From positions 10,518-74,517 of the forward strand of contig JBLNCQ010000070.1 in the NCBI GenBank assembly GCA_050260815.1: a stretch of 64,000 nt of DNA. Direction: 5' to 3'. Positions 401 to 42,732 of the stretch are shown in pieces. The DNA is from Bacillota bacterium. Lineage in GTDB: Bacteria; Bacillota; Sulfobacillia; JAMDAP01. A program made the translations under genes and the position numbers. The notes beneath the pieces are model-generated. The model was not told the DNA's origin, did no database searches, and saw only the letters and a program-made list of their open reading frames with translations. Within the stretch, counting starts at the first letter, position 1; each line of letters starts with the position of its first letter.

Positions 401-489
401 CCCCGGTCGGAGTATTTGGGCCGATCGGACAAGGGGCTGGAGAAGGTTGGCTTAGCGTTCGCCGCACCAACCCCCTGCAGAGGCTTTAT

Positions 490-1101: not shown

Positions 1102-1121
1102 GGCACCGCACTCCTCGTTCG

Positions 1122-2363: not shown

Positions 2364-2403
2364 GGCGTCGTACCTTCTCCGGCCAAGATGTTAGGAAGTG
2401 GCG

Positions 2404-3513
2404 TCACTTCTGCCACACAACCCGGTTGACGTATCCCACGTAGCTCAGAATGATGCGAACGACCTTCTCAGAGACGTTGGGCGTGCTATAGTCGTCAACG
2501 CGACGTAGCGTTCTGACGGGTCCTCGTCCTTGCCGCTTCAGAACCGTTAGTCCGCGCAGAACATTATCAAGGTCAAGACCTGTCATGATGACAGCCCCCT
2601 CCTCCATCCCCTCCGGCCGCTCGTGGGCTTCCCGAATGTTTACGGCGGGGAAGTTGAGGATGGAGGATTCCTCCGTAATGGTGCCGCTGTCGGAAAGAAC
2701 CGCGGTCGCATGCGTCTCGAGATGCACGTAATCAAAGAAGCCGAGGGGCTTCAACAACTCTACCTCAAGGGGGAGAGTAACGCCCTCGCCCTCGAGCCGC
2801 TTTCGCGTTCGCGGGTGGGTTGAGACGATGACGCGCTTACCGAACGACTCGGCAAGCCCACGCAGCAAGGCGACGAGCTTTCTAAACTGCACGAGCGAGT
2901 CAATGTTTTCCTCGCGGTGGGCGCTGACCACAAAGTAGTCGTTCTCCGTGAGACCGAGCCGACTGAGGACATCGGAACGTTCGATGCGATCGGCGTAGTA
3001 GTTGAGGACTTCTAGCAAGGGACTGCCCGTTTTGATAACCCTGTCAGGGGGCAGACCTTCCCTGAGTAGGTACTCTCGGCTTATCGAACTGTATGGCATG
3101 TTAATGTCGCTGATATGGTCGACGATGCGTCTATTGATTTCCTCAGGGACGCGCTCATCAAAGCACCTATTGCCAGCTTCCATGTGAAACACCGGCACCT
3201 TGCGCCGTTTGGCGCTAATGGCGGCGAGGCAGCTGTTGGTATCACCGAGCACCAGCAGAGCATCGGGTGATTCTTGAGCGATAACCTCGTCGCTCGCAGC
3301 GATGACCTGACCAATGGTCTGCGCGGCGGTAGCTCCCGCCGCGTCAAGGAAGTAATCAGGGCGCTGAATGTCGAGATCGTCAAAGAAGATTTGGTTCAGT
3401 TCATAGTCATAGTTCTGGCCGGTGTGGACCAGGACGTGGTGAGTGGTCTCATTGAGCGCAGCGATTACGCGCGAAAGGCGAATGATTTCTGGTCTGGTCC
3501 CCACGACAGTCAT
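2404..3513 (-). CDS. fnlC: UDP-N-acetylglucosamine 2-epimerase, non-hydrolysing (CapG/FnlC/WbjD-like)
   Basis: The ORF 2404..3618 was trimmed to the internal start [13 protein letters not shown] to avoid overlapping the upstream gene. The product has the WecB/MnaA family fold and is adjacent to CapE/CapF homologues. Confidence 0.8.
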
Positions 3514-3523
3514 GACCTTAAGC

Positions 3524-4645
3524 TTATTCACGTTCCACCTCAAGCCGATAGGTGTCGGGCCTTTCCGGATCAAAGACTTCGTTGGCCCAAAACAGTACGA
3601 TGAGTTCCGAGTCACCAATGTTGGTGATGGAATGAGTGTACCCGGGGGGAATGTCCACTACACGGAGGTTCGCCCCCGATACGGAGTACCGCACGATCTC
3701 ATTCGATGACACGTGGCGGAAACGGACTTCCGCTTCTCCCCTTAAGACAATGAACTTTTCGGCCTTAGTGTCGTGAAAGTGGTTTCCCCTTGTTACGCCG
3801 GGCTTGGTGGTGGAGACAAAGACCTGGCCAAAGGGACTAGACTTCAGCAGTTCGGCCAGCGTCCCCCGGGAGTCCGTCTTGGTTTCAAGGCTATAGGCGA
3901 AGTCCTTTGTGTCCAGATTCGCCAGATATGTGGCATATAGCGCCTTGGTCAGCCCGTCCGAGAAGTCCGGAACCCAACCACTTCGCCGCGATTGATGAAA
4001 CCCGTGAATCCTTGAGGCTAGCTCGGCAACAGTGATGCGGTAACTCACGGGAACATCTGCGTACGAGAAGGGTGTTGATGCAGTACGCTCGATTTCCGCC
4101 ATAAAGGCTGCAACTACGTCGTCAATATAGACCAGCTCGAGAACCCTTGCCGGATCACTAATGGTAATGGGCAGCCCCCTCGCAACGTTATGGCAAAACG
4201 TCGCCACTACCGAGTTGTAGTTTGGTCGAGACCACTTGCCGAAGATGTTCTTGAGCCTATATGCGACAACTTGACAACCGGTGGCCTCGGCGAACTGACG
4301 TAGGTCTTCTTCCGCCTCTCGTTTGCTCCTTCCATAGAGGGAGTCGTTTTCGGCCTGGATCGAAGACGCAAAGATAAGCCGCGGCCGACGACCCAGTGCC
4401 GACAGGGCCCGGATTATAGCGCGGGTAAGGCCTACGTTTACGGCCTCGAAGGCAACGGGGTCAGTTGGACGGTTCTCGCCGGCGATGTGGAACACCACGT
4501 CTGCAAGCGCCAATCTCTCATTGAGCCGCTCTGCAGGCGAATTCCGGTCAAACTCCCAAACCACATACTGGCGGTTGCGCCTAAGGGCATGTACGAGGTT
4601 CTTCCCAATGAAGCCAGCTGAGCCGGTAACAAGAATGTTCAGCAT
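3524..4645 (-). CDS. fnlB: UDP-2-acetamido-2,6-dideoxy-L-talose 4-dehydrogenase/reductase, CapF/FnlB/WbjC-like (N-terminal SDR plus C-terminal cupin)
   Basis: 373 aa. N-terminus [17 protein letters not shown] (Rossmann fold), plus a C-terminal cupin-like domain (GNHFH...[12 protein letters not shown]). This two-domain layout is diagnostic of CapF. Confidence 0.8.
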
Positions 4646-4649
4646 CTGC

Positions 4650-5678
4650 TCACCCTGCTAGCTCGGATTGGATGTACTCCTGTGCTAGGAGCAAGTCTAC
4701 GATCGCCTCTACGCTCAATCGGCGCGTGTTGTGAGAGTTGTAGTCCTGCTGTTCCGATACTCTCGTCTCGCCAATGGCATAGTACTTGTCATAGTTGAGA
4801 TCACGCGTGTCAGCCGGAATCCTATAGTAGTGCCCGTTATCGCAGGCGCGGGCAAGCTCCTCGCGGGTCAGAAGGGTCTCGTAGAGCTTTTCGCCATGCC
4901 GCGTACCGATCACGCGTATCGGATTGTCAGCGTGGAACACTCGCTTCACCGCTTCCGCCAGGTCTTCGATCGTAGCAGCTGGGGCTTTCCGGACGAAAAT
5001 GTCGCCCGGTTCCGCATGGAGAAATGCGTGGAGGACAAGATCAATTGCATCATCAATGGACATCAAGAACCGTGTCATTTGGGGATCTGTAACTGTAAGG
5101 GGCACTCCATCCTTGATTTGCCTCACGAATAGCGGGATCACGGAACCGCGTGAGGCCATTACGTTCCCGTATCTAGTGCCGCACAATATACACCCTCGTT
5201 CAGCAGCGAGGCGTGCTTTGGCCACCATAATTCGCTCGGCCATAGCCTTTGATATGCCCATGGCGTTAATCGGATAGACGGCCTTATCGGTACTGAGTAG
5301 GACGACCTTCTTCACACCGTTGGCAATTGAAGCATTGATCACGTTTTCGGTTCCTAGAGCATTAGTCCTAAGCGCTTCGACTGGATAAAACTCACACGAC
5401 GGAACCTGCTTCAATGCGGCAGCATGAAAGACGTAATCGATGCCTGCAGTAGCCTCGGCCACGCTGCCGTAATCTCTCACGTCACCAATATAGAAAGTGA
5501 TCGTAGAGTCCTGGTACTGGCGCCGCATATCGTCCTGCTTTTTCTCGTCTCGGCTAAATACGCGGATCTCACGCAAACCGCTATCCAGCATCCTTCTAAC
5601 GACCGCATTGCCAAATGTGCCAGTGCCACCGGTGACAAGTAAGCGCCTGCCTTCAAACACAACCCCACGCTCCTGCAA
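4650..5678 (-). CDS. fnlA: UDP-GlcNAc 4,6-dehydratase/5-epimerase, CapE/FnlA/WbjB-like
   Basis: 342 aa. N-terminus LLVTGGTGTFGNAVVRR. The CapD-like short form sits in a triad with the CapF and CapG homologues. Confidence 0.8.
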   Translation of the reverse strand: MQERGVVFEGRRLLVTGGTGTFGNAVVRRMLDSGLREIRVFSRDEKKQDDMRRQYQDSTITFYIGDVRDYGSVAEATAGIDYVFHAAALKQVPSCEFYPVEALRTNALGTENVINASIANGVKKVVLLSTDKAVYPINAMGISKAMAERIMVAKARLAAERGCILCGTRYGNVMASRGSVIPLFVRQIKDGVPLTVTDPQMTRFLMSIDDAIDLVLHAFLHAEPGDIFVRKAPAATIEDLAEAVKRVFHADNPIRVIGTRHGEKLYETLLTREELARACDNGHYYRIPADTRDLNYDKYYAIGETRVSEQQDYNSHNTRRLSVEAIVDLLLAQEYIQSELAG

Positions 5679-5906
5679 GCCAAATGCTTGGATGACCTTA
5701 CGTCCCTCTTGGTTCCCTCTTTGGCACCCTGAAGAACACCGTTATGCCACCGGCCTGGTGTGCACTGTGTCCGAACTACCGAAGAGGGGCACATGGACCA
5801 CGTCGTTGGTTCTCCTCTCTCCCAACTTAGGTGTGGGCCATGCCGCATTGCCGTGATCAGTCGATCCGTAACCCCGATTTCCTGCAGCAGTAACCAGCGT
5901 CCCAAC

Positions 5907-7238
5907 CTAGTCTCCAACCGTTAACGTCTCGGGCGTGATACCACGCATGTTATACTGGCCAGAACCGACTGTGGCCACGCGGAAACCGGCAGCTGTCCAA
6001 CTTGCTGCATCGAGGTAACCTCGCGTATCCAGCAGGAGTCGTTGAGAAACCAATCCACTAACAACTCGGGGGTCGAGGGCAAGATAGTCAACGTGGTCCG
6101 TCAAAAGCAGCACTGCATCCGCCCCGGCTAGTACACGCTCGACCGGGTGTGCGTAGCGCCCAATATGCGGATCATGGATTGCAACGTTAATGCCCTCGGA
6201 CTCGAGAAGCCGGGCCACTTCGAGCGCAGGGCTTTCGCGCTCATCTCCAACGTTCGCTTTGTATGAAGCGCCAAGAATGGCAGCCTTTCGCACGACTGTC
6301 CCTTGGGCCAGTCGCCGGAAGAGATCCAACACATGAAGTGGCATTTGGCGGTTGACTCGGCGGGCGGCTTGGATAAGGGAGGTCAGCTCAGGCGCAGCCT
6401 CTATTACGAAATAGGGATCTACGGCAATGCAATGCCCACCCACCCCGGGACCAGGCCGCAGGTAGTTGACCCGAGGATGGAGGTTGGCGAGCCGGATAGC
6501 ATTCCAGATATCCACGCCTAGATGCTCGCCTACGAGGGCGAACTCGTTTGCCAATGCGATGTTCACGTCCCGATAAGTGTTTTCCATTAACTTAACAAGT
6601 TCGGCTGTTGTACAGTCGGTTTCCTCCACCTGAGCCTTGACGAAGGATCGGTAAAAGTCCGCTGCAGCCCGACTCGCCTGCGGTGTGAGGCCTCCCACCA
6701 GTCGATGATTGTAGACCAGTTCGCGCAGTATATTCCCCGGAAGCACCCGTTCGGGTGCATGAGCGAGAAGAACAGTTGACGTATCCACCCCTTCGCTCTG
6801 CAAGAGTGGGAGAACCGTGCGGTCTAGCGTGTGTGGGGGGACCGTTGATTCAAGAATCAGCAGATTACCCGCCCGCAAAAAGGGTGCAATTGCCTTCGTA
6901 GCGGCAACGACATACGATAGATCAGCTCTGTAACGGTACTCCAGGCGGGAGTGCTCAGGACTCGCCACTTCGCGATCATCCTGAACCGGTGTCGGGACGG
7001 CGATGATGAAGACGTCGGCTACTTCCGGTTCTGTACTGATCTTCAGTTTGCCCGATTGTAGAACCGAGTGTGCTAAGTCAGTCAATCCTGGCTCGTTCAC
7101 GATAGGGATATCTCCAAGAGACAGTCTGTCCACTAGCACAGGGTTCACGTCAACCCCAATGACGTCGTGCCCCGCTTGACCAAGAACGCACGCTGTTGGA
7201 AACCCGATATATCCCAGACCCATGATACATACTCGCAT
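5907..7238 (-). CDS. UDP-N-acetyl-D-mannosamine dehydrogenase (WecC/Cap5O-like nucleotide-sugar dehydrogenase)
   Basis: 443 aa. N-terminus MRVCIMGLGYIGFPTA, UDP-glucose/GDP-mannose dehydrogenase family. Substrate specificity is inferred from the cap5-like context. Confidence 0.75.
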   Translation of the reverse strand: MRVCIMGLGYIGFPTACVLGQAGHDVIGVDVNPVLVDRLSLGDIPIVNEPGLTDLAHSVLQSGKLKISTEPEVADVFIIAVPTPVQDDREVASPEHSRLEYRYRADLSYVVAATKAIAPFLRAGNLLILESTVPPHTLDRTVLPLLQSEGVDTSTVLLAHAPERVLPGNILRELVYNHRLVGGLTPQASRAAADFYRSFVKAQVEETDCTTAELVKLMENTYRDVNIALANEFALVGEHLGVDIWNAIRLANLHPRVNYLRPGPGVGGHCIAVDPYFVIEAAPELTSLIQAARRVNRQMPLHVLDLFRRLAQGTVVRKAAILGASYKANVGDERESPALEVARLLESEGINVAIHDPHIGRYAHPVERVLAGADAVLLLTDHVDYLALDPRVVSGLVSQRLLLDTRGYLDAASWTAAGFRVATVGSGQYNMRGITPETLTVGD

Positions 7239-7268
7239 ATAGAACCCCCCGGTTTGCGGAATTGGCGC

Positions 7269-8432
7269 TTAAAGGAGCGTTTCCTTGCGCCTGCTTTCCT
7301 GAGACGTAGAAACGCCCAATTCGGTGTACATGCGTATTAGCTTGGCCGCTTCGGTCTCCCAATTATAGAGCTCCAAAACCGCAGATCGTCCGTTCTCTCC
7401 TAGCTTCCTCCTACGTTCGAAATCCGTGGCCAGTCCATCTATTGCCGCAGCTATACTTCCGGGATCCGTGGAGTCCACGAGCAATCCGCAATCGGCTTCT
7501 TTCACGATTGTCGACACCTCTTCGGTAAAGCCTGGCACAATCACGGGCAGTCCCGCCAGCATGTAGTCGAAAAGCTTATGTGGCAGTGCCCAAACGTTAT
7601 TCTGAATTCCGGGCTGGAATAGCACCAAACCGACGTCACTGGCGATAAGATAACTGTAAGCCTCCTCAAAAGGCAACCATCTTTCTACGCGGATCCGATC
7701 CGTTAGTCCCAGGTGACGGGCTCGTTCATGAAACTCGGGTTCACTACCATCATCAAACGCACCTATAATATGAACCCGTACTGATTTGGATTTGGCGATC
7801 ACGAGAGCATCTAAGAGTTCTGGCCACCCGCGCTGTCGATCCATCAGCCCAAGATGAACCAGGGTAATAGCTGCAACATTTATGTGTTCACGCTTAGTAG
7901 TGCCAGCGCTCAGCCGCGCAAAGTTTTGAACCAGTACCAACCGCTGTTCGTAGCCGGTGAAGTCCAACGCCACCGATCGCTTAGCAAGGACGAGGCGATC
8001 CGTGATGGGAGCGAGCGAACGCAAAACCGCCCTTACGAGTCCAGCAACGGGAGAGCGCAACAGGAGTGGGAATCGGCCTTCGGCAAAAGTACTCGGGTAG
8101 TGCTCATGAACATCAAAGACCAGTATTTTCTGCCGGAACCGTTTTAGCATTACTCCTACAAACCAGGAGTCCACCTCATTGCAGTGGTAGCAGTCAGCCT
8201 CTATCTGGGCGGCCATAAGGTACAGGCGGGGGAGCTGCAATAGACGGCCGATTAGCCCGGCGGGTCTGGGGTACGTAACGATCTTTACCCCATCCTGCTC
8301 CCATCGGTGGTAACCATCACTGGGTGCCAAATGGGTGACGTCAAACCCTGCCTTAGCTAGGGAGACAGCCTCTTTCTGGAACACGCGCTTGTCCAGTGGT
8401 GGGTGCATCGAGGACAAGAAGCAAATCTTCAT
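7269..8432 (-). CDS. glycosyltransferase family 4
   Basis: Start taken at MKICFLSS (the track ORF extends to 8447). GT4 core. Confidence 0.75.
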   Translation of the reverse strand: MKICFLSSMHPPLDKRVFQKEAVSLAKAGFDVTHLAPSDGYHRWEQDGVKIVTYPRPAGLIGRLLQLPRLYLMAAQIEADCYHCNEVDSWFVGVMLKRFRQKILVFDVHEHYPSTFAEGRFPLLLRSPVAGLVRAVLRSLAPITDRLVLAKRSVALDFTGYEQRLVLVQNFARLSAGTTKREHINVAAITLVHLGLMDRQRGWPELLDALVIAKSKSVRVHIIGAFDDGSEPEFHERARHLGLTDRIRVERWLPFEEAYSYLIASDVGLVLFQPGIQNNVWALPHKLFDYMLAGLPVIVPGFTEEVSTIVKEADCGLLVDSTDPGSIAAAIDGLATDFERRRKLGENGRSAVLELYNWETEAAKLIRMYTELGVSTSQESRRKETLL

Positions 8433-8487
8433 AACCATCAACACCATTCCGTAGACGTCCTGATCGTCGTCTTTGGACGCGCCGCAA

Positions 8488-9759
8488 CTACGGGGAATTG
8501 ACTCTCTTCCGATGCGGATATTGCCGATAAAGGCGCGCAGACACGGAGACTACGTAGAGCAGAAAGATCCAGTTGATCGGTTGTTTCAGGTACGCGCTAT
8601 TCGCCCACGTCATTATCCCGTACCCCACTAGAGCCACTAAGCTAGCCACGACTAACGGTTCGGCGACAGAGCGCCGGCGATAGATAAGCAGGGCGCACCA
8701 AAGTAGGAAAGTGACAAAGGCTGTAAAGATGAACAAACCATACTGGGACAATATCTCGATCCAGAGACTATGGGGGTTCAGGATACCGCTAGTGTTATAT
8801 CGTCCTAAGCCTCGTTCCGTATAGACCTCGAAGCCACCCGCACCAGTCCCTAGCCCATATGATAGCCAGAGATAGTGTAGTCCGTCCTTTACCAAATTCA
8901 CGCGTTCGACTACAGAGGCATCATGCCCGCTTAAGGTAGACAAAGAGTCTATACCGCGAATAGCGATCATTGGGAACACTAGAATGAAAACGAGTAACGC
9001 CTGCCGCACTGCCGCCCTCCGAGTGCTCAGCAGAAGGTAGGCTACTGCCTCGAATGCCAGCGCAATGATGCCAAGTCGGCTCCGGGTTGCTACGAGGAGA
9101 ACGGGAATGCTGGTAGCTAGAGCAAGGTATACCACGCGCATAAGAGACCTCGCGCGGTGTACTGCTAGTGCCATTAGGGGCAGAACAATGGTAAGGAAGG
9201 CCGCGTAGTTGTTGGGATTGTCGAAGGTAGCTGCGACTACGCCGTCCTTGGCGTAGGCCGGAGCGTTTAGCGCCCAGTAACTTGACAAGTGGTGCGCCGT
9301 AATGAGCTCCCATGCCGCAACGGCTCCCGTTAGGATAAACGCCCACACCCAACCCCGCTCTAGATAGGCCAGGCCTTCCTCAGTTGAAGCACCAAAGTGG
9401 AGAAGCCCCCATGCTCCAACAATCCCAATAGCCAAATCGCCTATTTCGCGTAGGGCGGTCAGTCCATCCGGGGCCCAGTAGTATGAGGCGGTTCCCCCGA
9501 GAAGCCACAGGGAGGCTAAGGCTGAGAACATTACAGCGGGCAAGGCTGAATCTCGAGGCAATCGCCTCCGGACAAGGCCGAAGCCAACAACACTGACGAC
9601 CGTGGCAAGGACTATAAGACGAAACCCGTAGAGGGTGACTCCGAATAACTGAACAGGGAGGAGATGCTGACCTAAAGCAGCCACTGGGACTGCCAGACCG
9701 ATTAGGAATCGTTGAAGACGGCTGAGCCGGACTGGCGCCCCTGAACTAGTGGCGCTCAT
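8488..9759 (-). CDS. O-antigen polymerase/ligase family membrane protein (Wzy-like)
   Basis: 423 aa polytopic membrane protein. The Wzy_C-type loop motif NPHSLWIEILSQYG sits after about 8 TM segments. Confidence 0.7.
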   Translation of the reverse strand: MSATSSGAPVRLSRLQRFLIGLAVPVAALGQHLLPVQLFGVTLYGFRLIVLATVVSVVGFGLVRRRLPRDSALPAVMFSALASLWLLGGTASYYWAPDGLTALREIGDLAIGIVGAWGLLHFGASTEEGLAYLERGWVWAFILTGAVAAWELITAHHLSSYWALNAPAYAKDGVVAATFDNPNNYAAFLTIVLPLMALAVHRARSLMRVVYLALATSIPVLLVATRSRLGIIALAFEAVAYLLLSTRRAAVRQALLVFILVFPMIAIRGIDSLSTLSGHDASVVERVNLVKDGLHYLWLSYGLGTGAGGFEVYTERGLGRYNTSGILNPHSLWIEILSQYGLFIFTAFVTFLLWCALLIYRRRSVAEPLVVASLVALVGYGIMTWANSAYLKQPINWIFLLYVVSVSARLYRQYPHRKRVNSP

Positions 9760-9794
9760 CTATGCACCTCCCTTCGCATTCACTTCAATACCAG

Positions 9795-10727
9795 TCAGTC
9801 TCTAAGCAACGTACCGACTCGGCGCCCGACATGCTTCAACACATCTATTGCCAAAGAACCAAGAATAAGGGCGGGTTGAGGGCTTCGGAACAGCGTATGC
9901 TGCGCTTCGCCATAAAGTCGCAAGTGCAAGAAACGCTTCACAAGCTCCACTCGATGCTTGTACTCGGGGCCGGGAGCGGTTGTAAGCCGTCGATCTATAC
10001 GTGCTCGAGTTTCGTCGTCTAGGAACCGCGTAATGAGCAGCGCGTTCTCTTTGATGATGGCTCTTCTCACAGCAGGCTGCTGACTGAGTTGACGTTCATG
10101 AATCCTCCTCAATCCAACGACGTCATTCATGTAGACTGAAGAATAGCCGTGATAAGTCAGCAACAGCCACATTGCGTAGTCCTGGGAGTAGAGAATTCCG
10201 GTGTCGAACAGGCCTAGTTCGAGTGCCGTCTGGCGCTTGACTATCGTCGTTGCCCCATTAACGAAGCAACCAAACACCAAATCGACGAACCAGTCGTGTT
10301 CTATTAGGCCATCGACGTCCCAACCAAGAGCGAAACGAACTAGTGGAGGGAAGAACTCCTGGTGGTTATTGAACTGCCTATAGTCACCAAAATAGAAGTC
10401 AGCATCTGGGTATCGGTTCATATAGTGGCTGATGACCGCTCCAGCTTCAGGTGTGTAGAGGTCATCTGAAGATAGCCAAGCAACGTACTTGGTTTCTGCG
10501 GCAGCGATTCCCGTGTTCAGTGCTGAGGAAATACCTCGGTTGGATGCATGCCTAATGCATCGGACACCCGATTCTCTGGCCTCGTCGAATGTGCTATCAG
10601 TGGAGCCATCATCGACAACTATTATCCGCTCGCGCTGGGAACCGAGGGCCCGTTGAGCCGACTCAATTGACTCCCGCAGATAGGCAGCTGCGTTATAGGC
10701 AGGAATAATGACGGTGATGTCGTTCAC
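9795..10727 (-). CDS. glycosyltransferase family 2
   Basis: N-terminus ITVIIPAYNAAAYLRESIES...VVDDGSTD, with DxD-type motifs. Confidence 0.8.
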   Translation of the reverse strand: MNDITVIIPAYNAAAYLRESIESAQRALGSQRERIIVVDDGSTDSTFDEARESGVRCIRHASNRGISSALNTGIAAAETKYVAWLSSDDLYTPEAGAVISHYMNRYPDADFYFGDYRQFNNHQEFFPPLVRFALGWDVDGLIEHDWFVDLVFGCFVNGATTIVKRQTALELGLFDTGILYSQDYAMWLLLTYHGYSSVYMNDVVGLRRIHERQLSQQPAVRRAIIKENALLITRFLDDETRARIDRRLTTAPGPEYKHRVELVKRFLHLRLYGEAQHTLFRSPQPALILGSLAIDVLKHVGRRVGTLLRD

Positions 10728-10798
10728 GGTATCTTGGCAACCTCCTTGCCACCCGGATCATCTTGCACTTCATTGGGCGAGGCCGCTCTGAGGGTTGC

Positions 10799-12037
10799 TC
10801 ACATGACGCTACGTACAGGCTCTGGCGCAAATAGTTTACGAGCCCCGTTGCCTTGCCGTCCTACTAGTCCTTCGTAGATGCGTGCCATGGTAGCGGCATT
10901 GTGGTCCCAGGTGTACTCTTGACTTACCATTTGCTGGCCTCTTTCCCCCATCTCCTGGGCACGAGCAGGGTTACTGAGGAGGTCATCCATCGCGTCCACT
11001 AGTTCGTCTAGCGCCTGGCGAGCGACAAGACGTCCATGGACGCCGTCTACTACAAAGTCCGCTAATCCTTCTCCTTTGCAGCCGATTACCGGCTTGCCAC
11101 AAGCAAGGGCCTCAAGGTAAACGATACCAAATCCTTCCTGCCAGCTAGGCAGAGAGAATATACTGCAGGTCGCCATGGCGGCCATTACTTCATCGTGTGG
11201 GCGCCTGCCCAAGAACGTAACGTGCTCTTGGAGCCCCAGTTCTTGCGTCAACGCAACAAGGTTAGGGCGTTCAGGACCGTCTCCTATGATCAAATAGTGC
11301 AGGTCTGGGTACTTTGGTAGAATCTCCTTTACTGCCCGAAGGTTTAGGTCAATGCCTTTACTCCTAATAAGGTTTGATACGCTCAAGATCAGAGGCGGTG
11401 ACGCAGTCCGGAGACTCGGACGCCGCACCCTGGAGAGGGCGGTCGTCCCATTGGGTACCACTCTCCAATTGGAGCGATTACCGAAGAGAGAAACGGCTAA
11501 CCCATGAAGCTTTCTGCTAACAAAGACAACTTGTGTTGCCCCGATCAGCACCTCTCCTACTGCCGAGGCACATGCCGAATTTAGCTTTACCGTTGTCTGT
11601 AGGTCCTGACCGTGGACCGTCACCACTAGCGGCTTAGCGTAGGCCTCCGCTATCTTCATCGCGGCGTACCCCGCAGGAAGCGCGACGTGAGCATGAAGTA
11701 CGTCGAAAGGAAAGACACCGTATGTTAGGTCGACCAGTTGTGCTATTGAGTACAAGAGCCGCTTACCGGAAGACGCGTAGAACAACGATCTAGGGAACTG
11801 CAGAAAACGGGGATAGGAAATCTGAATCCCATCGAGCGCACCCTGCTGAGGAATGGCATGATACATCCTCCATTTGGGGTTGATCTGGGCCAGAAGGGCA
11901 GGTGCCCATGGCACAGGTGAAATGACGCGAACATCGATGCCCCTTCGCGCTAAAGCCTGAACCTGTTGATGGACGAACACACCGAAGACCGGGTTGGCTG
12001 GCGAGGGGTATAACGTAGAAAGAACCAGTACTCTCAT
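10799..12037 (-). CDS. glycosyltransferase family 4
   Basis: 412 aa. N-terminus MRVLVLSTLYPSP, with the GT4 core motif (EGFGIVYLEALACGKPVI). Confidence 0.8.
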   Translation of the reverse strand: MRVLVLSTLYPSPANPVFGVFVHQQVQALARRGIDVRVISPVPWAPALLAQINPKWRMYHAIPQQGALDGIQISYPRFLQFPRSLFYASSGKRLLYSIAQLVDLTYGVFPFDVLHAHVALPAGYAAMKIAEAYAKPLVVTVHGQDLQTTVKLNSACASAVGEVLIGATQVVFVSRKLHGLAVSLFGNRSNWRVVPNGTTALSRVRRPSLRTASPPLILSVSNLIRSKGIDLNLRAVKEILPKYPDLHYLIIGDGPERPNLVALTQELGLQEHVTFLGRRPHDEVMAAMATCSIFSLPSWQEGFGIVYLEALACGKPVIGCKGEGLADFVVDGVHGRLVARQALDELVDAMDDLLSNPARAQEMGERGQQMVSQEYTWDHNAATMARIYEGLVGRQGNGARKLFAPEPVRSVM

Positions 12038-36221: not shown

Positions 36222-37035
36222 GTCTTCAAATCCCCCTTGTGATTTGGTCTTTCCTCGGTTCCCCGAGAAAAACGAAGCCTGTTGGACACTCCTACGCTAG
36301 TTGGGAGCATCACTCCTTTCACAGGAAAGCCTGTGAAACTTTATCATTCATACCTGCCAAAGGCATGTGCAGCGCACGCGTTGCAGATTCCTCTGAGAGG
36401 TTTGAAGGATTCATGACCTTGTGTTGCCTATTCAGCTTTCAAGGTGCGGGCCCTTGCGGGCCGGGGTCCGCCGTCCAGCGGCGGGTCTTGCGCCCTACTG
36501 AATGAGGGCTATGAGATCACGGGCTGGTTCACCGCCCTTGCAGGGGTGGCCCGGACCTGACGGGGTAACATAGTTCGGTGCCTGACAACCCTCTCCTGCT
36601 TTGGAGCCCCTAGAAAGTTTCGGAGCTTGTTGGCAAGATTTGTGGGCCATCCTGGGTCCTCTGCCTGTTCCTTTATAAACTGGCGTCCTTGCCCAAGCTG
36701 GAGGGCACCGTGGAGCCCCTGGCCGATCGGGACAGGGCCGTGGTCCTGGTTCCTTTCGACCAGCTTTTCCACAAATCCTCCCGGTTCTTGGGGCTTCGCC
36801 TTGTCGTCCGCCCCCGGGAGGCTATTCCTGGCCGACGGTAGATGGACGTTCGGTTCCCCCGATTTGTTCCCAACCGGCGAAGATTTTTCTTGGGTTTTTA
36901 AGGACAGCCTGTATTGGCAAGCCTTGGACCCCTTTGGTAGAACCGGTAATCAGACGAAGCCCCGGCAAAGTTCCGGGGAGCGCCGACGTAGGTTGTTGCC
37001 AGCTCAGATTTGGCCAGCGGACGCCAAAAGGCGCT

Positions 37036-38348
37036 TCAGGATGACCACGGCCTCCGCTCGGGTGGCGTGCTCGGCCAGGGCAAACCGCCCCCGTCTCGCC
37101 CGCGCATCCAGCCGTTGGCCAGGGCGAGGGCAGCCGCCTCACGTGCCCAGGCGGACACGGCGGGCCCGTCGGCCATGCTGTGGAGCCTCGCCAGCGCCTG
37201 ATCCGGGTCCGTGGGGGGCATTCCGTACTTCGCCGCAGTCCGCTTGATCATCACCGCCATTTCCTGCCGGGTGATCGGTGCGTCCGGGCGGAACTGCCCG
37301 TCGGAGCCAAGGATCAGGCCTTCATGGGCTGCCGTGGAGACTGATCGGGCGTACCAGGCTGACGGCGCCACGTCGGCGAAGGGGCTCGGCCCCTGCGATT
37401 CCGCTAGCCCCAGGGCTCGCACCAGCAGGGCGGCAAACTGCGCGCGCGTGATGACCCCAGCGGGGTCGAACCGGCTGCCGTCGCCCCCACCGCGGGCGAT
37501 CTGGCGGGCGGCCATCATTTCCACGTCATCTTTGGCCCAATGGGCGGCCAAGTCGGCAAAAGACCGGGCGTACTCCAGCACGGCGTACTCGCTGAACGAC
37601 GGCGCGGTGAAGGTGATGGTTCGCGCCTGCGTATCCGCCCTCCCGCCGCGGTAGTCCCAGGCACCGGCCTCCTCGTTATAGCGGTACACGCCCAGTCTGG
37701 CGGGGTTGGAGCCGGGCGAGTAGGGGAGGGTGACCTGCAGGGGATGCCGGGGCAGCGAGACCAGGGACGCCGTCACTGCCGCTGGTCTCCAGCACCAGCA
37801 GGTACGCACCGCCCGCCGACGTGAGCCCTCCCCTGCGCGCCTCTTCCAGGCGGTCGGAGAGGGTTTCGGGGGCCTTGCCGATCACGACGTGGGGGCGGCG
37901 TCTGGACGTCGGCCATGGCCTCCTTGGGCAGGGCGAGCCTGGCGCCCAGCGCGGTCACAGTGACGGCCGCGCCCCTCTCCGCCAGTGCCTGCACCACCTC
38001 AGGCGGCAGGTCCACCGTGACGGTGTGGACCGCAGCGCGACCCGCAGGCGGGTCGGCGGGGATAGTCAGCATGCCGCCCGTTGCGCGGTCGGCTGCAAAC
38101 GACGCCAACGTTAAGGTGCCTTCCCTGCCCGTGTCGTCGAACGTCCAGGTTCCCAGAGGGGGCGGCTCGAAGGATCGGGACGGGCCGGCGGACGGCGAAG
38201 GCGTGGTGGATTGGGCGGTGGCGGTGAGCAAGCCCTGGTAGTCGCCGGTGTTGATGATGGCGGTCAGGGTGTACGGCTCCTCAAACGTGCCCGACGGGAT
38301 GGCCACCGTGCTGCTGCCCAGTTGGAGCAGCGTGCCGTTGAACATCAC
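37036..38348 (-). pseudogene. decayed SLH-domain protein gene (5'-truncated and frameshifted)
   Basis: Two overlapping ORFs in different frames, 37773..38348 (N-terminal part) and 37036..37809 (C-terminal part with SLH domains RFDPAGVITRAQFAALLVRALGL and FADVAPSAWYARSVSTAAHEGLILGSDGQFRPDAPITRQEMAV). No signal peptide. The protein-like in-frame sequence continues upstream of the first Met until a stop at about 38425, where the AT-rich insert begins. Confidence 0.5.
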
Positions 38349-38481
38349 GGCGCCGTTCTTGTCCTGGATCTGCAGCGTGGGCAGGACGGCGTTGTAGGAG
38401 GCGTCCAGCAGTGCAAGGTCGAAACTCTTGTTCGCTTTTCTCGTCTAAACTCTCGCGATAATTTCGTGGAGGTGCTTCAAA

Positions 38482-38679
38482 ATGCTTCGGCTGCTGGTGA
38501 GAGTCAGGGACAGCCAAACAATTGAAAAGCTTAAGGCCCTGGCAAAGATCACCTACATCTCGCAGTTGACCAACACGGTCGGGATTGAGGTGGCTTCTGA
38601 GGCGGCTGCAGCTAAGATAGCTAGGATCCAGGGTGTTCTGACGGTCGACGAAGATACTGAAGTGAGCATCTTAAAGTAG
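38482..38679 (+). CDS. small protein (65 aa), possible peptidase-inhibitor-I9/propeptide-like fold; unknown function
   Basis: RBS GGAGGTG 9 nt upstream of ATG. It has its own terminator and is embedded in an AT-rich segment (38400-38480) unlike the flanking DNA. IEKLKALAKITYISQLTNTVGIEVASEAAAAKIARIQGVLTVDEDTEV resembles the C-terminal half of subtilisin propeptide (I9) domains. Confidence 0.45.
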   Translation: MLRLLVRVRDSQTIEKLKALAKITYISQLTNTVGIEVASEAAAAKIARIQGVLTVDEDTEVSILK

Positions 38680-38702
38680 GTCGCCAAAGTCTTTGTTTGG
38701 CG

Positions 38703-38733
38703 GAGCCCAGGGTTGCCCTGGGCTCATTGTTTT
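38703..38733 (+). terminator. intrinsic terminator of the small gene
   Basis: GAGCCCAGGG ttg CCCTGGGCTC (10-bp stem) followed by ATTGTTTT. Confidence 0.55.
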
Positions 38734-38852
38734 CCCAGAGTCCTTACGGGGCGATCTGATGCAAATCCCGGGAGATCGCCACGGCCTCTGCCCGGCTGGC
38801 CGGTCCCCGGAGAGCGATGCGCCCGCCGTCCCGGCCCTTCATTGCGACTAGA

Positions 38853-38875
38853 AAGGGCGCCCGCTGGGGGCGCCC
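38853..38875 (-). terminator. GC-rich palindromic hairpin after the SLH gene (terminator or REP-like element)
   Basis: agggcgccc gctgg gggcgccct, 19 nt after the stop at 38894. It shares an identical 13-mer ggcgcccgctggg with the hairpin at 48082-48106. Confidence 0.35.
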
Positions 38876-38893
38876 TCTTGACCAGGGTCTGCG

Positions 38894-40111
38894 TTACGGT
38901 GTAGCAGTGGTCTCCACGGTGGTCGTGCCCGTCGCCGGCTGGACCGGGTTCACCGTCTCCTTTAGCTGCAGGAACCGCTCAATCAGGGCCGCGGCCTGGG
39001 CCCTGTCCGCCGGCAGGTTGGGCTGGAACGTGCCGTCGTCCATGCCCTTGATCAGGCCCAGCCTGGCCGCCAGCTCCACCGAGCCGCGGGCCCACTCGGG
39101 AACGCTGCTCGCATCCGTGAACTGGGTGGCGCCGCCCTGCTTCGCCAGGGCCTCGGCCTGGTCCTCCAGGCCCAGGGCCCGGATCAGCAGGACGGCCATC
39201 TGGGCGCGGGTGAGGGGCTGAGTGGGATCAAAGGCCTCGTCGTTATCGCCCTTGACGATGCCGTGGGACTCCGCCGCTCCAATGTATTGCGATGCCCAGA
39301 AGCCGTCGGGAAGGTCCTGAAAGCCCTTCATCGCCTGGTTGTCGGTGTTCAGGTTGGCCGCCAGCGACAGCATCTTGATGAACTGGGCGCCCTCCACCTT
39401 CTCCTGGGGCTGGAAGGTCCCGTCCGCCGTGCCGTTCACGATCCCCATGGCCACCAGCTTGGCGATGACGTCCTCGGCCCAGTTGCCCTTGACGTCGGTG
39501 AGCTTGGCCATGGCCGCGCCGGGCTTGACGATGCGCTTCTCGACCTCGCCCACCTTCTTGCCGCTGGCGTCGTAGACCGAGAGCTTGATGCTGTTCTTGC
39601 CCGGTTCCAGGGGCAGATCGGCCAGATTGAAGGTGCCGTCTGCGTTAACCGGCACGGTGAGGACCTGCTCGCCGCCCGCGTTCTCCACCTTGACCTTCAC
39701 GGTGTAGCCGTCCTTGACCAGACCGCTGATGTCGATGGCGGCGTCGCTAGTCACGGAGCCGTCCTGGGGAAGGGTGATGACAACGCCGTCCTCCATCTCC
39801 TCTTCCACTTCATCCAGAGCCTCGGCCTGGGCCTCGAGAGCGGCCTCCAGGGCATCGTCCTCTTCGTCGCTGCCCTGGTCGTCCGCCTCGTCCTCCGGCT
39901 CATCCTCGTCCTCCGCGTCCTGGTGGTCGTCTTCTTCGTCCAGGGTCGATGAAGAGGAGTCACCTTGCAGGGCCGGATCAGAGGGACCGGAACTGGTTGG
40001 GGTCACCGGGCTGGTGGCATCCGTCCCCGAGGCGCCGGCATAGGCCACGCTGGCATTCACCAGCAGCACCGCCAGGGCCACGGCGAGGAGCCGCATGATC
40101 CGCTTGCTCAT
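38894..40111 (-). CDS. SLH-domain surface protein with acidic N-terminal region and Ig-like domain
   Basis: 405 aa. Signal peptide, a D/E-rich low-complexity stretch, a beta-domain (TVKVKVENAGGEQVLTVPVNADGTFN), then three C-terminal SLH domains (LTDVKGNWAEDVIAKLVAMGIVNG..., FQDLPDGFWASQYIGAAESHGIVKG..., FTDASSVPEWARGSVELAARLGLIKG). Confidence 0.8.
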   Translation of the reverse strand: MSKRIMRLLAVALAVLLVNASVAYAGASGTDATSPVTPTSSGPSDPALQGDSSSSTLDEEDDHQDAEDEDEPEDEADDQGSDEEDDALEAALEAQAEALDEVEEEMEDGVVITLPQDGSVTSDAAIDISGLVKDGYTVKVKVENAGGEQVLTVPVNADGTFNLADLPLEPGKNSIKLSVYDASGKKVGEVEKRIVKPGAAMAKLTDVKGNWAEDVIAKLVAMGIVNGTADGTFQPQEKVEGAQFIKMLSLAANLNTDNQAMKGFQDLPDGFWASQYIGAAESHGIVKGDNDEAFDPTQPLTRAQMAVLLIRALGLEDQAEALAKQGGATQFTDASSVPEWARGSVELAARLGLIKGMDDGTFQPNLPADRAQAAALIERFLQLKETVNPVQPATGTTTVETTATP

Positions 40112-40227
40112 GTATCGTTCCTCCCTTTACCCTCCCATACGGGTGGGTGGCCGGGGTTTCGGGGGGTACCCCTGGGGTCGGTCCCCGCCTCCCGAGGGCC
40201 GAGCCTGCTCCCCCGACGCCGGCACAG

Positions 40228-41517
40228 CTAGTGGTCCGGGGTTTCAGGGGCGTCCGCTTCGGCGGATTCCTCCTCCGGGCCCTCCCTTGCGTCGTCCGGG
40301 GCGTCAATCGACGGGGTATCCGCCGGCTCCGCTTCCTCTAGACCCAAGTCTGTCTGCTCGTCGCGGTCTTCGGTCTCCGCTGCCGGGCCATCAGGCTCGG
40401 CGCGTTCCGGTTCGGACGGCGCCTGCTGGGCGCCCTCCAAGTGGGCGGGGGCTGACGAGGCATCGTCCTGCTCGTCGCCTTCCTCGCGGGCGGCGGGCAC
40501 CGTCTCGTTTCGCTGCTCAGCCGCGCTGCCGGATTCCCCATCCGCGGTACCGTCGGCGGATCGGTCCTCCGGGTCGTCACGCCCGCTGTCGCCGTCGTTG
40601 GGGCCTTCCGCCTGGGCACTCTGATCAACCCGCTGGCCCGCAGGGTAGAGGTCGCTGGGGTCCATCCCCGCCCCGCGGAAGAAGTCGGCCAGGCTCTGGC
40701 CGCGCAAGGCCTCCTCGGAGTAGAGCACGCCCCTGCCCGTCAGCTCCCGTTTCACGGCTTCCCGGTTGACGGAGAGGCGGTCGAGCTGGGCGTCCTTGCG
40801 AAGGCTGGCGGTGGTCTGCGAAACGGCCACAAAACCGCTCAGGCCCTTGTCCTTCAGGCGGGTGGCGATGTCGCGCTGCACGGCGGCCGGATCCGGCCCC
40901 TCCCCACCTGTGAGGGAGACGACCGCCGCCACTACCACGTTGTCACGGTCGGGCCCCAGATAGCCAAAAGCCGCTGCCTGGTCGATCACGCGGTTGACAG
41001 CTTCATCTAGAGTCAGTCCCTTTACCGGCTGGGCCTCCAGAACGCGTTGGGCATCATGGTTGAGGGCGGTGCTCTGCAGCACCTCCCCCTGCCGATCCAC
41101 CTCCAGCTCCAGGCTGGGGTTGATGTCGATGGCTACTACGGCCACGGGCCGGGGCAGCAGAACCCGCGGCAGAACGGTGAAGGCCAGGACGGCCGCCGTC
41201 GCCAGCGCGAACCCTGCCCGCGCCCACGTGGCCGGGCCAACGCGGGCGTGCAGCCACGATTCCGCCCAGCTCCGGGCCGGTCGGTCTGCCGGGGCGTCCT
41301 CGGCGGCTCCTCCCTGCTGCGCCACGGCTGCCTCCGGAGGAGGCCAGGGGAGTTCAAGTTCCCTGCCCCGCCAGGCCCGCAGGACCTCGACAGGCAGTTC
41401 CGACTCGGCGGCGGGCAGGTGGCCCCGCAGGAACTTCAGGGAGACGGTGCGAAACTCGCCCTCCCGGGTCATGAGGACGGCCTGGTCGTCCAACACCTGC
41501 GCCAACAGGCATTTCAT
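40228..41517 (-). CDS. rsgI: anti-sigma-I factor RsgI-like. It has an N-terminal RsgI_N domain, one TM, a juxtamembrane folded segment and a long acidic disordered C-terminus.
   Basis: N-terminus MKCLLAQVLDDQAVLMTREGEFRTVSL matches the RsgI_N pattern G.V.EV.D.YAVVLT.DGEF. TM is GFALATAAVLAFTVL. The last 130 aa are very D/E/A/P-rich. It overlaps sigI by 4 nt. Confidence 0.7.
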   Translation of the reverse strand: MKCLLAQVLDDQAVLMTREGEFRTVSLKFLRGHLPAAESELPVEVLRAWRGRELELPWPPPEAAVAQQGGAAEDAPADRPARSWAESWLHARVGPATWARAGFALATAAVLAFTVLPRVLLPRPVAVVAIDINPSLELEVDRQGEVLQSTALNHDAQRVLEAQPVKGLTLDEAVNRVIDQAAAFGYLGPDRDNVVVAAVVSLTGGEGPDPAAVQRDIATRLKDKGLSGFVAVSQTTASLRKDAQLDRLSVNREAVKRELTGRGVLYSEEALRGQSLADFFRGAGMDPSDLYPAGQRVDQSAQAEGPNDGDSGRDDPEDRSADGTADGESGSAAEQRNETVPAAREEGDEQDDASSAPAHLEGAQQAPSEPERAEPDGPAAETEDRDEQTDLGLEEAEPADTPSIDAPDDAREGPEEESAEADAPETPDH

Positions 41518-42299
41518 AGGGCCCGTCCCCCCTCTTCCCCGGTTTGACCTGGCGAGGCCTCGCCGTTCGATGCCACCGTGCCGGTCGGCTCCAGCTTAAT
41601 GAAGCCCTTCAAATGGGTGTAGTCGTCGGTCCCCAGGATCAGGGCTACGGCGATGATGTACTTGCGCCCGGTCTCCAGCACCTTGCGGCTGAGGCCGGTG
41701 ACCCCCTGCAACTGCTTGATGGGCAGTTGGCCCTTACGCGTGAGGCTGCGCATGAGGGCCGCGTCCGAGGCCAGCCGTGCGGCGGCGCGCTGCAGGGAGA
41801 GGCGCGTATCCCGGTGGCGGGGACAGATTACGCCCAGCTCCGCCAGGGACGTGCCGTATCGTCTCAGGGCCAGATCGTAGCGCGCCAGGTCATCGGCCCG
41901 GTCCGCCATGTCCTCCTGCTCCCGATAAGCCGACGCGGCTGGCCCTGCCTCCAGGGGCGCGATCGCCCCGTCGTCGCCCTCCTCATCGGGGACGGCGCCG
42001 TCCAGCAACAGGGGCGCCTGTGCCGGCTGGCGGCGGAACCAGTCGACCAGCCGGTGGTGAATGACCATACTCGCGTGCCCAAGGAAAGACCTACCCGCCT
42101 CCGGGTTGAAGGTGTCGATAGCCTCGTTGAAGGCCAGCAGGCTCACGCTCAGTTCGTCGTCGTTGTGCCAGTCCAGGGGGCGGCGGCAGACCCTGGACGC
42201 GGCCTGCCTGATAAACGCCCGATGCCGGCTGATCAGCTCTTCCCGGGCCTGCTCGTCGCCGTCCTGCGAGTGGCGCAGCAGGTCCATCAGGACCGTGTC
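41514..42299 (-). CDS. sigI: RNA polymerase sigma factor SigI
   Basis: MDTVLMDLLRHSQDGDEQAREELISRHRAFIRQAAS...DDELSVSLLAFNEAIDTFNPEAGRSFLGHASMVIHHRLVDWFRR is highly typical of SigI region 2. Start taken at the internal Met with RBS AAAGGTGGGGAG; the track ORF's 96-aa N-extension was rejected. Confidence 0.75.
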   Translation of the reverse strand, partial: DTVLMDLLRHSQDGDEQAREELISRHRAFIRQAASRVCRRPLDWHNDDELSVSLLAFNEAIDTFNPEAGRSFLGHASMVIHHRLVDWFRRQPAQAPLLLDGAVPDEEGDDGAIAPLEAGPAASAYREQEDMADRADDLARYDLALRRYGTSLAELGVICPRHRDTRLSLQRAAARLASDAALMRSLTRKGQLPIKQLQGVTGLSRKVLETGRKYIIAVALILGTDDYTHLKGFIKLEPTGTVASNGEASPGQTGEEGGRAL

Positions 42300-42732
42300 C
42301 ATAGCTCTCCCCACCTTTCCATCCGACGAGCCGCCCTCCGTTTCGGGGGGCACCCGGCCGCGGCTCTCTCCACTAGCCGGCCGTCTTGGACCCGCTCCGT
42401 CACCCGGTCGCGCGAACGCAAAAACCGGCAAGCATGCCGAAGGCCTGGTTGCCGGTCGAATGGCGGGTCGGGAATCCGCCCCTTGCGGGCGGCGCCGAAT
42501 AACGCCTTGGCTGCGGCAACCGGCTGTCCTGGCCTCCCCGTCCGCCCCGACTCCCCTTGGGAGCCGGCTGGCGCGCTTTACCCGCATCCAGCAGGCAATG
42601 AGGCTGTAGACCCATGGCTTTGCGCCCCCGAGCTTTCACCCGGGGTGGCCCTTTTCGGTTTTCCGGCTATACGCATTCGACGGAAAGGGGTAAATTCCTT
42701 CCGTTTGAGGCAGAAAGTTCCTGCTAGTGTCG

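Follow-up and report, generated by a model that had tools for sequence, protein, structure and literature searches.

The 65-codon open reading frame at 38482–38679, which lies on the plus strand in an S-layer gene block of an uncultured Bacillota bacterium, is a real gene, and its product is well supported as a stand-alone protein resembling the prodomains of subtilases. The minus-strand gene for an SLH protein beside it is a decaying pseudogene. Both are located in a stretch of 64,000 nucleotides (contig JBLNCQ010000070.1, positions 10,518–74,517), hereafter called the window. A first-pass annotation of the window had proposed that an AT-rich insertion carrying the small gene decapitated the SLH gene; the comparison with related contigs described below makes this unlikely.

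The small gene proved to be as self-contained as the first-pass annotation had claimed. The proposed ribosome-binding site is present in the form of a GGAGG motif upstream of the ATG, and the strong terminator placed at 38703–38733 was recovered by terminator scan as a hairpin at 38703–38725 (10-bp stem with eight G-C pairs) and a T-run. Together with a preceding hairpin at 38682–38702 it forms a region with a predicted folding energy of −30.9 kcal/mol (z = −4.81). The closest homologue of the protein, P0033, has the motif GTGGAGGT in front of its start, as does the window gene. A promoter scan revealed no convincing full sigma-70 promoter for the small gene, and no ncRNA was found within or beside the low-GC segment on which it resides (Table 1).

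Table 1. Features of the small-gene locus and of the adjoining SLH pseudogene in the window.
Feature	Position	Strand	Basis
65-aa ORF, ATG to TAG	38482–38679	+	ORF list; GenBank hypothetical protein MGE5590119.1 (ACM3ZA_05825)
−10-like GATAAT, 5' of the small-gene GGAGG	38457–38462	+	direct sequence reading
Shine-Dalgarno-like GGAGG, 9 nt 5' of ATG	38468–38472	+	direct sequence reading
Intrinsic terminator of the small gene, two tandem hairpins and T-rich run	38682–38735	+	scan, RNA fold
Low-GC segment, 351 bp, 52.7% GC, with leader, ORF, terminator and 11-bp inverted repeat (38747–38757 / 38773–38783)	38433–38783		blastn and alignment versus L005
Relic of upstream paralogous SLH gene, last 32 codons and stop (MKGRDGGRIALRGPASRAEAVAISRDLHQIAP, then stop)	38744–38842	−	translation
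64-bp stretch inside the relic, missing in L001 and L003	38759–38822		alignments
SLH pseudogene, 5'-truncated, body and three SLH repeats	37004–38444	−	three-frame translation
Frameshift 1, 14-bp deletion at about 37901	37893–37902	−	versus L004 and L005
Frameshift 2, 2-bp deletion, the one seen in the first-pass annotation	37766–37767	−	versus L004 and L005
Frameshift 3, 1-bp deletion at about 37090, in the third SLH repeat	37087–37090	−	versus L004 and L005

Could the ORF nevertheless be a non-functional leftover, either a gene in the course of decay or an open frame present by chance between two pseudogene relics? The surrounding stretch is visibly decaying (deletions of 64, 4 and about 365 bp, each specific to certain strains), the ORF is gone from one related contig (L004) and carries two non-synonymous changes in another (L001), no promoter was found for it, and it has no partner gene. 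However, the ORF is full-length and intact in four contigs despite the indels that hit the DNA on either side of it, and its ribosome-binding site and terminator are conserved. All five changes within the ORF that distinguish L003 from the window are synonymous (P about 0.001), as are five of the seven when L001 and L003 are pooled (P about 0.012). One further contig, L002, matches the window at 100% identity and probably stems from the data underlying the MAG; it was left out as independent confirmation. Taking into account also the conservation of core residues across domains of life and the confident fold prediction, we regard a leftover ORF as very improbable.

The 65-aa protein has no signal peptide or other export signal and produced no match above threshold in Pfam, NCBIfam, PADLOC or PHROGs. 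An exhaustive phmmer search retrieved relatives of 63–64 aa (E = 2.7e-6 and 1.3e-4), and a profile search assembled 84 clusters, nearly all of them 61–67 aa long. These unannotated proteins come almost exclusively from archaea (Methanosarcinales, ANME and alkanotrophs), and a scan of a genome collection returned archaeal MAGs alone, without the window's own species. A 705-aa leucine-rich-repeat protein (P0032), matching over eight short stretches, was rejected as a homologue, the match being one of repeats or composition.

In each of the 11 archaeal loci, the start of the homologue falls in the final codons of a gene, or of its remnant, for a Peptidase_S8 protein of ~327 aa. The archaeal subtilases lack signal peptides and begin directly with their prodomain, which shares 36% identity with the small protein and aligns with it in profile–profile comparison at a probability of 94.6% (hhalign, E = 6.5e-8). 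On these alignments, the small protein and the N-terminal prodomain of the archaeal S8 proteases are paralogues. No S8 peptidase is encoded in the 64-kb window or in the 10 kb beyond its left end, and therefore no partner for the window protein was identified; neither does a protease gene lie beside the P0033 copy.

The structure of the 65-aa protein was predicted with AlphaFold2 from an alignment of 84 sequences (pLDDT 85.8), the single-sequence model (pLDDT 52) being unusable. Four strands (residues 2–8, 22–27, 32–37 and 52–57) and two helices (11–20 and 40–47) make up the model, bearing out the beta-alpha-beta pattern read from the sequence in the first-pass annotation. The top Foldseek matches were propeptide chains of Tk-subtilisin (TM 0.70–0.75, 22–28% identity), followed by the prodomains of BPN', subtilisin E, fervidolysin and furin/PC1. 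Subtilase propeptides (MEROPS I9; Tkpro 2Z2Y_B/3A3O_B/9UES_A; BPN' 1SPB_P/3BGO_P) were also the only sequence-profile matches in the PDB, 16 out of 16 being to the Tk-subtilisin propeptide (best E = 0.029). The Inhibitor_I9 model (PF05922) did not match the window protein and matched one of the 84 relatives (E = 0.029).

By inspection, the tail of the window protein, V55-D-E-D-T-E-V-S-I-L64, has the spacing of V68-E69-E70-D71-…-Y77 in BPN' and of V-E-F-D-…-L in Tkpro, and hence of the V-E-x-D…(Y/L, P1) pattern of these two propeptides. The shared motif, V-[ED]-x-D-x-x-[AV]-x-[ILA]-[LY], ends one residue short of the C-terminus in the small protein. In the BPN' propeptide, Glu69 and Asp71 are helix-capping residues (PMC6993865). 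The acidic capping pattern D-x-D is missing from the archaeal relatives (…VRESSKGVIAV), and the argument from the tail is therefore drawn from the window protein alone. Unlike the propeptides, the window protein is encoded by a separate gene with no protease nearby, whereas its archaeal relatives are paralogues of a genuine cis-prodomain. Taken together, the gene context of the homologues, the paralogy with the prodomain and the predicted fold strongly support the likeness to subtilisin propeptides (I9) suggested in the first-pass annotation, and the 65-aa protein is, judging from these comparisons, homologous to a subtilase prodomain.

An identity unrelated to proteases was considered as well, namely that of a ferredoxin-like regulatory or binding module, either a distant member of DUF2129/UPF0298 (YlbG) or a ligand-binding domain of the ACT/RAM type. 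The small size and the beta-alpha-beta sequence pattern are similar to those of the Bacillus subtilis YlbG-type proteins, 76 of the 84 family members match DUF2129 weakly (best E = 4.6e-5), three are named YlbG by JGI, and the window and P0033 copies are not adjoined by a protease gene. However, no DUF2129 match was obtained for the window protein itself, and its relatives reach 14.5 bits against an NCBIfam cut-off of 115 (PF09902 / NF002777). The structural and profile matches to subtilase propeptides, the invariable S8 linkage in archaea and the paralogy with the protease's own prodomain also speak against such a module, which we therefore consider improbable. Moreover, DUF2129 has no known function, our literature search having turned up no functional studies of DUF2129/YlbG; as the family might itself adopt a prodomain-like fold, it is not necessarily a true alternative.

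That the small ORF sits on a compositionally foreign segment is supported by several measures. The GC content is ~0.49–0.57 over 38350–38700 compared to 0.64–0.77 in the flanks, which confirms the AT-rich stretch noted at the end of the SLH frame in the first-pass annotation. The 351-bp segment, as delimited by comparison with the outgroup contig L005, is flanked by DNA of 69.8% (left) and 67.2% (right) GC and falls below 99.5% of the 351-bp windows lying outside the initial 12 kb of the window; GC3 is 0.65 versus 0.81–0.88. By blastn and alignment, L005 lacks the segment and carries at that interval the 3' end of a paralogous SLH gene located upstream, followed by a spacer of 40 nt and 41 extra SLH codons. 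A relic of this upstream gene is still recognizable in the window, where positions 38842–38784 are 92% identical to positions 436–494 of L005, the 3' end of the gene that is intact there. The polarity of the segment (gain versus loss) is read from this one outgroup, because a metagenome scan for further SLH-gene relatives returned the L005 contig alone and a query with the neighbouring 87-aa protein yielded L001 and L002 alone.

With regard to the origin of the segment, insertion sequences, MITEs and integron cassettes were rejected: neither a target-site duplication nor terminal repeats, a transposase or an integrase were found, and the segment is present in a single copy in the window. Its flanks contain no repeats beyond chance-level 11–13-mers, no IS3-type transposase is encoded within the window, and no relatives of the segment were found among phage and plasmid vectors.

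The minus-strand SLH gene was claimed in the first-pass annotation to lack a signal peptide and to remain open beyond its first Met. This is indeed the case: the frame continues (…TRKANKSFDLALLDASYNAVLPTLQIQDKNGAV) up to a TAG at 38447–38445, and its translation contains neither a start codon nor an N-terminal hydrophobic or signal segment. The body and the repeats can be read only with three frame changes; the frame-corrected translation matches Pfam SLH (PF00395) in three stretches (E = 1.6e-25). The frameshift reported near 37773–37809 corresponds to the 2-bp deletion of Table 1, and the two other lesions had been missed. The orthologues in L004 (P0002) and L005 (P0003) are uninterrupted across all three sites. 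All three lesions recur in L001, which was assembled from a different sequencing run (SRR24035588) and has SNPs of its own; a sequencing artefact in the window record is therefore ruled out. Full-length SLH surface proteins of the same family (P0004 and P0006–P0011; ~585–600 aa) resemble the pseudogene in their central body (…LGVYRYNE..G.WDY.GG.VD…) and in three SLH repeats at the C-terminus (34–48% identity), but the pseudogene is short of ~110–150 N-terminal residues, including the signal peptide. The more distant full-length relatives (500–600 aa) all have signal peptides, as do the products of the neighbouring surface genes. The SLH locus shows step-wise decay and strain-level turnover by indels and recombination within an S-layer gene block, and is in this respect an ordinary case.

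According to the proposal of the first-pass annotation, a single insertion, or insertion with deletion, brought the segment and removed the start and signal peptide of a functional SLH gene, which decayed thereafter. The segment does begin where the SLH frame ends, homology to L005 being lost at ~38433, and relative to L005 it stands in place of the spacer and the 41 codons. Furthermore, the frameshifts are confined to the haplotypes bearing the segment (the window and L001), the L004 copy being one open frame, and dN/dS values of 0.21 to L005 and 0.49 to L004 are consistent with recently relaxed selection. However, the latter value does not exceed those of the neighbouring intact surface genes (omega 0.33–0.49), and the hallmarks of insertion are absent. 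The L005 copy, which is free of the segment, has no signal peptide either, only 13 non-hydrophobic codons lying between it and the stop of the upstream gene. The segment is therefore not required to explain the missing export signal, which the truncated SLH copy probably lacked before the segment arrived. A dN/dS of 0.21 for the SLH copies of the window and L005, however, is difficult to square with a gene that never possessed an export signal.

Alignment with relatives, which the first-pass annotation had suggested as a check, thus fixed the ends of the segment through L005 and at the same time revealed the L004 contig, which lacks 38462–38826 (about 365 bp) and hence the ORF, and still has the AT-rich leader, as far as 38461, together with the same truncation point as the window. 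On its face this argues against decapitation by the segment. Since L004, L001 and L003 have in common two SNPs and a deletion end-point that is derived, L004 has probably lost the ORF secondarily, and therefore does not settle whether the segment caused the truncation. Microhomology between GCGAT repeats was rejected as the cause of the deletions in L004 and L001, the observed junctions not being exactly reproduced. On balance, decapitation of a functional gene by the segment appears unlikely.

The reading that we consider fairly probable is that of a real, horizontally acquired prodomain-like gene situated between SLH relics, whose product would bind tightly to and inhibit an S8 protease encoded at another site in the genome, and/or assist its folding. 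As judged from subtilase propeptides and the known stand-alone propeptide-like inhibitors (PMC6993865), the beta-sheet of the small protein would most likely dock on the surface of the protease, with the C-terminal tail (V55–L64) most likely inserted into the active-site cleft. The gene would have come to lie, on its low-GC segment of ~350 bp, between the relics of two tandem SLH paralogues, one a 3' remnant of 99 bp and the other a copy truncated at its 5' end; the latter, probably already export-less, would later have acquired its three frameshifting deletions in this lineage. We infer from these comparisons the inhibitor or chaperone activity, the presence of a partner protease in this bacterium and the sequence in which the rearrangements took place. 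The alternative offered in the first-pass annotation, an inhibitor of surface proteases, is unlikely because there is no S8 partner in the window and no export signal on the protein; the archaeal partner proteases are likewise without signal peptides.

More speculatively, the proteins might constitute a hitherto unrecognised prokaryotic family of trans-encoded prodomains, in which translation of the archaeal small gene would be coupled to that of a cytoplasmic S8 protease already equipped with a cis-prodomain of its own. Such a module of protease and extra inhibitor, located in envelope-glycan islands, would possibly be self-restraining, toxin–antitoxin-like or defence-like, and the Bacillota copy, having arrived by cross-domain transfer, would survive as an orphan in the S-layer block, with the role of an 'anti-protease' or immunity gene. 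We put this forward only tentatively.

Stand-alone propeptide-like inhibitors of subtilases have so far been characterised in eukaryotes only, in fungi, plants and apicomplexans (PMC6993865), and no account of stand-alone prodomain genes in prokaryotes turned up in our literature search. The eukaryotic examples include POIA1 of Pleurotus (1V5I_B), yeast PBI2, Arabidopsis SPI-1, Toxoplasma MIC5 and Plasmodium SUB1-ProM (PMC6993865). Their inhibitory activity has been shown by experiment and some are secreted, whereas the small protein is prokaryotic, lacks a signal peptide and has a predicted role. The gene for the Plasmodium inhibitor adjoins subtilase genes (PMC6993865), as do those for the archaeal relatives, which differ from the eukaryotic inhibitors in their demonstrable homology to the neighbouring protease's own prodomain. 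The results thus indicate a compact prokaryotic family lacking a Pfam model, the archaeal members of which are hard-wired to a cytoplasmic S8 protease and which has crossed into Bacteria at least once. About 85 clusters of 'hypothetical' 63-aa proteins hereby receive a name and, if the inhibitor role holds true, the family would provide a simple system for understanding how intracellular subtilases are restrained.

The region between 37.0 and 38.9 kb is part of an S-layer-homology (SLH) gene block in the MAG of this uncultured Bacillota bacterium, and every element listed in the first-pass annotation was found in the sequence. The stretch reported as AT-rich has about 50% GC at the small gene versus 64-77% around it. 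The 351 bp that are new relative to the sole outgroup locus, L005 (38433-38783), have 52.7% GC, which is below the value for 99.5% of windows of that length, with the low-GC glycan cluster (1-12 kb) left out. As had been described, the 65-codon ORF (GenBank MGE5590119.1, locus tag ACM3ZA_05825) carries GGAGG 9 nt before its ATG, and a terminator scan located two tandem hairpins with a T-run 3' of it (fold -30.9 kcal/mol, z = -4.8).

Features of the small-gene locus and of the damaged SLH genes
Feature	Position	Strand	Remark
65-codon ORF	38482-38679	+	
SLH pseudogene	37004-38444	-	5'-truncated
14-bp deletion in SLH pseudogene	~37901	-	Alignment with relatives P0002/P0003; not in first-pass annotation
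2-bp deletion in SLH pseudogene	37766/37767	-	Alignment with relatives P0002/P0003
1-bp deletion in SLH pseudogene	~37090	-	Alignment with relatives P0002/P0003; not in first-pass annotation
Second SLH relic	38842-38744	-	Between small-gene terminator and next intact gene; translation MKGRDGGRIALRGPASRAEAVAISRDLHQIAP followed by stop
SLH/Glucodextran_B protein gene, 405 aa	38894-40111		Next intact gene past the relic

On sequence evidence the small ORF is a genuine gene: four contigs carry it intact, with strain-specific indels in the DNA on either side. The five substitutions inside the L003 copy all fall at third positions and leave the protein unchanged (P about 0.001); two non-synonymous changes occur in L001, and with both contigs pooled five of seven changes are synonymous (P about 0.012). 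When 1.84 billion representatives were searched exhaustively with phmmer, the protein's own cluster came back together with proteins of 64 aa (E = 2.7e-6) and 63 aa (E = 1.3e-4); a repeat protein also matched by this query was discarded. Profile searching yielded 84 clusters, nearly all of 61-67 aa and lacking a Pfam domain, from sources including Ca. Syntrophoarchaeum, Methanophagales and Ca. Methanolliviera, and a genome scan found further homologues in Methanosarcinales, Ca. Argoarchaeum and ANME-2 MAGs.

Three lines of evidence, independent of one another, give good support to the suggestion that the product resembles subtilisin propeptides (I9): gene context, paralogy with the S8 prodomain and structural matches. 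At all 11 archaeal loci the homologue starts inside the last codons of a Peptidase_S8 gene of ~327 aa or its remnant; in L014 and L015 the protease gene is reduced to a remnant and the small gene is intact. The archaeal protease has no signal peptide and begins directly with its prodomain (MRYIVEVEEL…), which shares 36% identity with the small protein (profile-profile probability 94.6%, E = 6.5e-8). The best Foldseek matches in the PDB were Tk-subtilisin propeptide chains (TM 0.70-0.75, 22-28% identity), followed by the prodomains of BPN', subtilisin E, fervidolysin and PC1/3, and all 16 PDB sequence-profile matches were to the Tk-subtilisin propeptide, at E = 0.029 only. By inspection only, the C-terminus (V55-D-E-D-T-E-V-S-I-L64-K65) has the spacing of the BPN' prosegment (V68-E69-E70-D71…Y77), in which E69 and D71 cap helices and the last residue sits in S1 (PMC6993865), and of Tkpro (V-E-F-D…L). 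ACT/RAM-type domains have the same fold, with slightly lower scores. The window protein had no match in the model libraries searched (Pfam, NCBIfam, PADLOC, PHROGs); 76 of the 84 relatives weakly match DUF2129/YlbG, a family of no known function. An archaeal 63-aa protein (L009 1735-1926) weakly matches a same-size phage family whose function is not known, phrog_19642 (E = 1.2e-4), to which the window protein has no match.

The neighbouring SLH gene is a pseudogene, damaged beyond what was first reported. It has neither start nor signal peptide, its minus-strand frame running on upstream until a TAG at 38447-38445, and its product is readable only with three frame changes; the corrected translation contains three SLH repeats (Pfam E = 1.6e-25). 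The orthologue P0002 (445 aa, in the closer relative L004) and the related P0003 (515 aa, in L005) are uninterrupted across all three sites. The frameshift noted previously, corresponding to the 2-bp deletion, is real: L001, from a separate sequencing run and with SNPs of its own, has the identical three lesions, which are thus not read errors (L002, identical to the window and probably from the same data, was left out as confirmation). P0002 is otherwise open and lacks a signal peptide; an in-frame 87-bp deletion (L004 6478-6483, window 37056-37141) has removed part of its third SLH repeat, and this gene is probably dying in the L004 lineage too. Between the pseudogene and the gene for an 807-aa S-layer protein lies an 87-aa ORF (36509-36772, minus strand) without a family match in Pfam, NCBIfam or PHROGs. 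It is near-identical in L004 (2 amino-acid differences), whereas its neighbours differ by 8-50%.

Of the layouts available, that of L005 is the most ancestral, with two tandem paralogous SLH genes 40 nt apart. Relative to it, the upstream paralogue in the window is cut down to its last 32 codons, the first 59 nt of this relic being 92% identical to the 3' end of the intact gene directly upstream of P0003. The downstream paralogue lacks its first ~41 codons, and between the two relics lies the low-GC segment that carries the small gene. The proposal that arrival of the segment decapitated the SLH gene is only partly supported: L005 lacks the segment, whose start coincides exactly with the end of the SLH frame, and the frameshifts are restricted to segment-bearing haplotypes. 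However, P0003 has no signal peptide despite lacking the segment, with only 13 non-hydrophobic codons between it and the upstream stop, whereas the full-length relatives farther removed (498-603 aa) all have one. Nor were terminal repeats, a target duplication, a transposase or a second copy found for the segment. Furthermore, positions 38462-38826, and with them the ORF, are missing from L004, although its truncation point is identical and the AT-rich leader is retained as far as 38461. This lineage has probably lost the ORF secondarily, since the gap takes out part of the relic common to the window and L005, and its end-point (38822-38826) and two SNPs are shared with ORF-bearing L001 and L003; it therefore neither proves nor refutes the segment as the cause. 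For the SLH gene, dN/dS comes to 0.21 versus L005 and 0.49 versus L004; intact surface genes nearby span 0.33-0.49, a range that takes in the second figure. So low a ratio over the longer term is hard to square with a copy that always lacked an export signal. At L005 1-700 the upstream SLH gene and P0003 share a reading frame, separated by TAG and 13 codons; P0003 could represent an incomplete tandem duplication or, possibly, a read-through fusion. The pseudogene story is one of ordinary genome decay.

Horizontal acquisition of the small gene, possibly across domains, is indicated by the low GC, by the lack of the segment in L005 and by a family found almost only in archaea. The gene's GC3 is 0.65 versus 0.81-0.88 in its neighbours; phage, plasmid and IS were looked for as vehicles of the segment and none was found. 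Between the window and L001, all 7 SNPs in 6.8 kb are confined to ~400 bp around the small gene (38326-38729), the left flank being identical and the right (38823-41900) only about 96.6-98.6% identical, a pattern suggestive of mosaicism between strains, with a recombination breakpoint here. Farther along, a c-di-GMP-I riboswitch aptamer (42512-42660, minus strand; RF01051, 46.9 bits, E = 8e-7) sits at the 5' end of a gene for a SigI-like sigma factor (41514-42587 as the long ORF), and translation must really start downstream of the aptamer. Next come an RsgI-like anti-sigma gene (40228-41517) and, after it, the SLH/S-layer block, an order that suggests c-di-GMP control of the surface-protein cluster.

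By analogy with cis-propeptides and the eukaryotic stand-alone mimics POIA1, PBI2, AtSPI-1, TgMIC5 and SUB1-ProM (PMC6993865), the small protein would act in the cytoplasm as a free-standing prodomain, docking on an S8 protease to inhibit it tightly in the manner of a reaction product, to help it fold, or both. The alternative of a surface-protease inhibitor is unlikely, since the N-terminus of the small protein is not hydrophobic and the S8 partners of its archaeal relatives are likewise not exported. Weak points of the prodomain reading are that no S8 gene is present in the window or in 10 kb beyond its left end, and that the closest homologue, P0033 (42% identity), stands alone as well, next to an IS3 element but not inside it; the lack of library matches, the weak DUF2129 matches and the fold shared with ACT/RAM-type domains weigh on the same side. 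The archaeal modules of S8 and 63-aa genes (L008 2627-3983, L009 761-1926, L011 1016-2184, L014, L015 2936-3535) lie within nucleotide-sugar, glycosyltransferase and flippase clusters, in L008 interleaved with the toxin-antitoxin genes MNT/HepT, PIN and HicAB. Positions 1-12000 hold a lower-GC (52-59%) envelope-glycan biosynthesis cluster (GT4/GT2 glycosyltransferases, Wzy, UDP-glucose dehydrogenase, epimerases, flippase) of the same functional class, reaching at least 10 kb past the left end of the window (L022).

The small gene encodes a stand-alone subtilase-prodomain-like protein, new as the prokaryotic form of a type already known. Its interest comes mainly from the archaeal module of a protease plus an extra prodomain, which appears to be without prior description in the literature searched.
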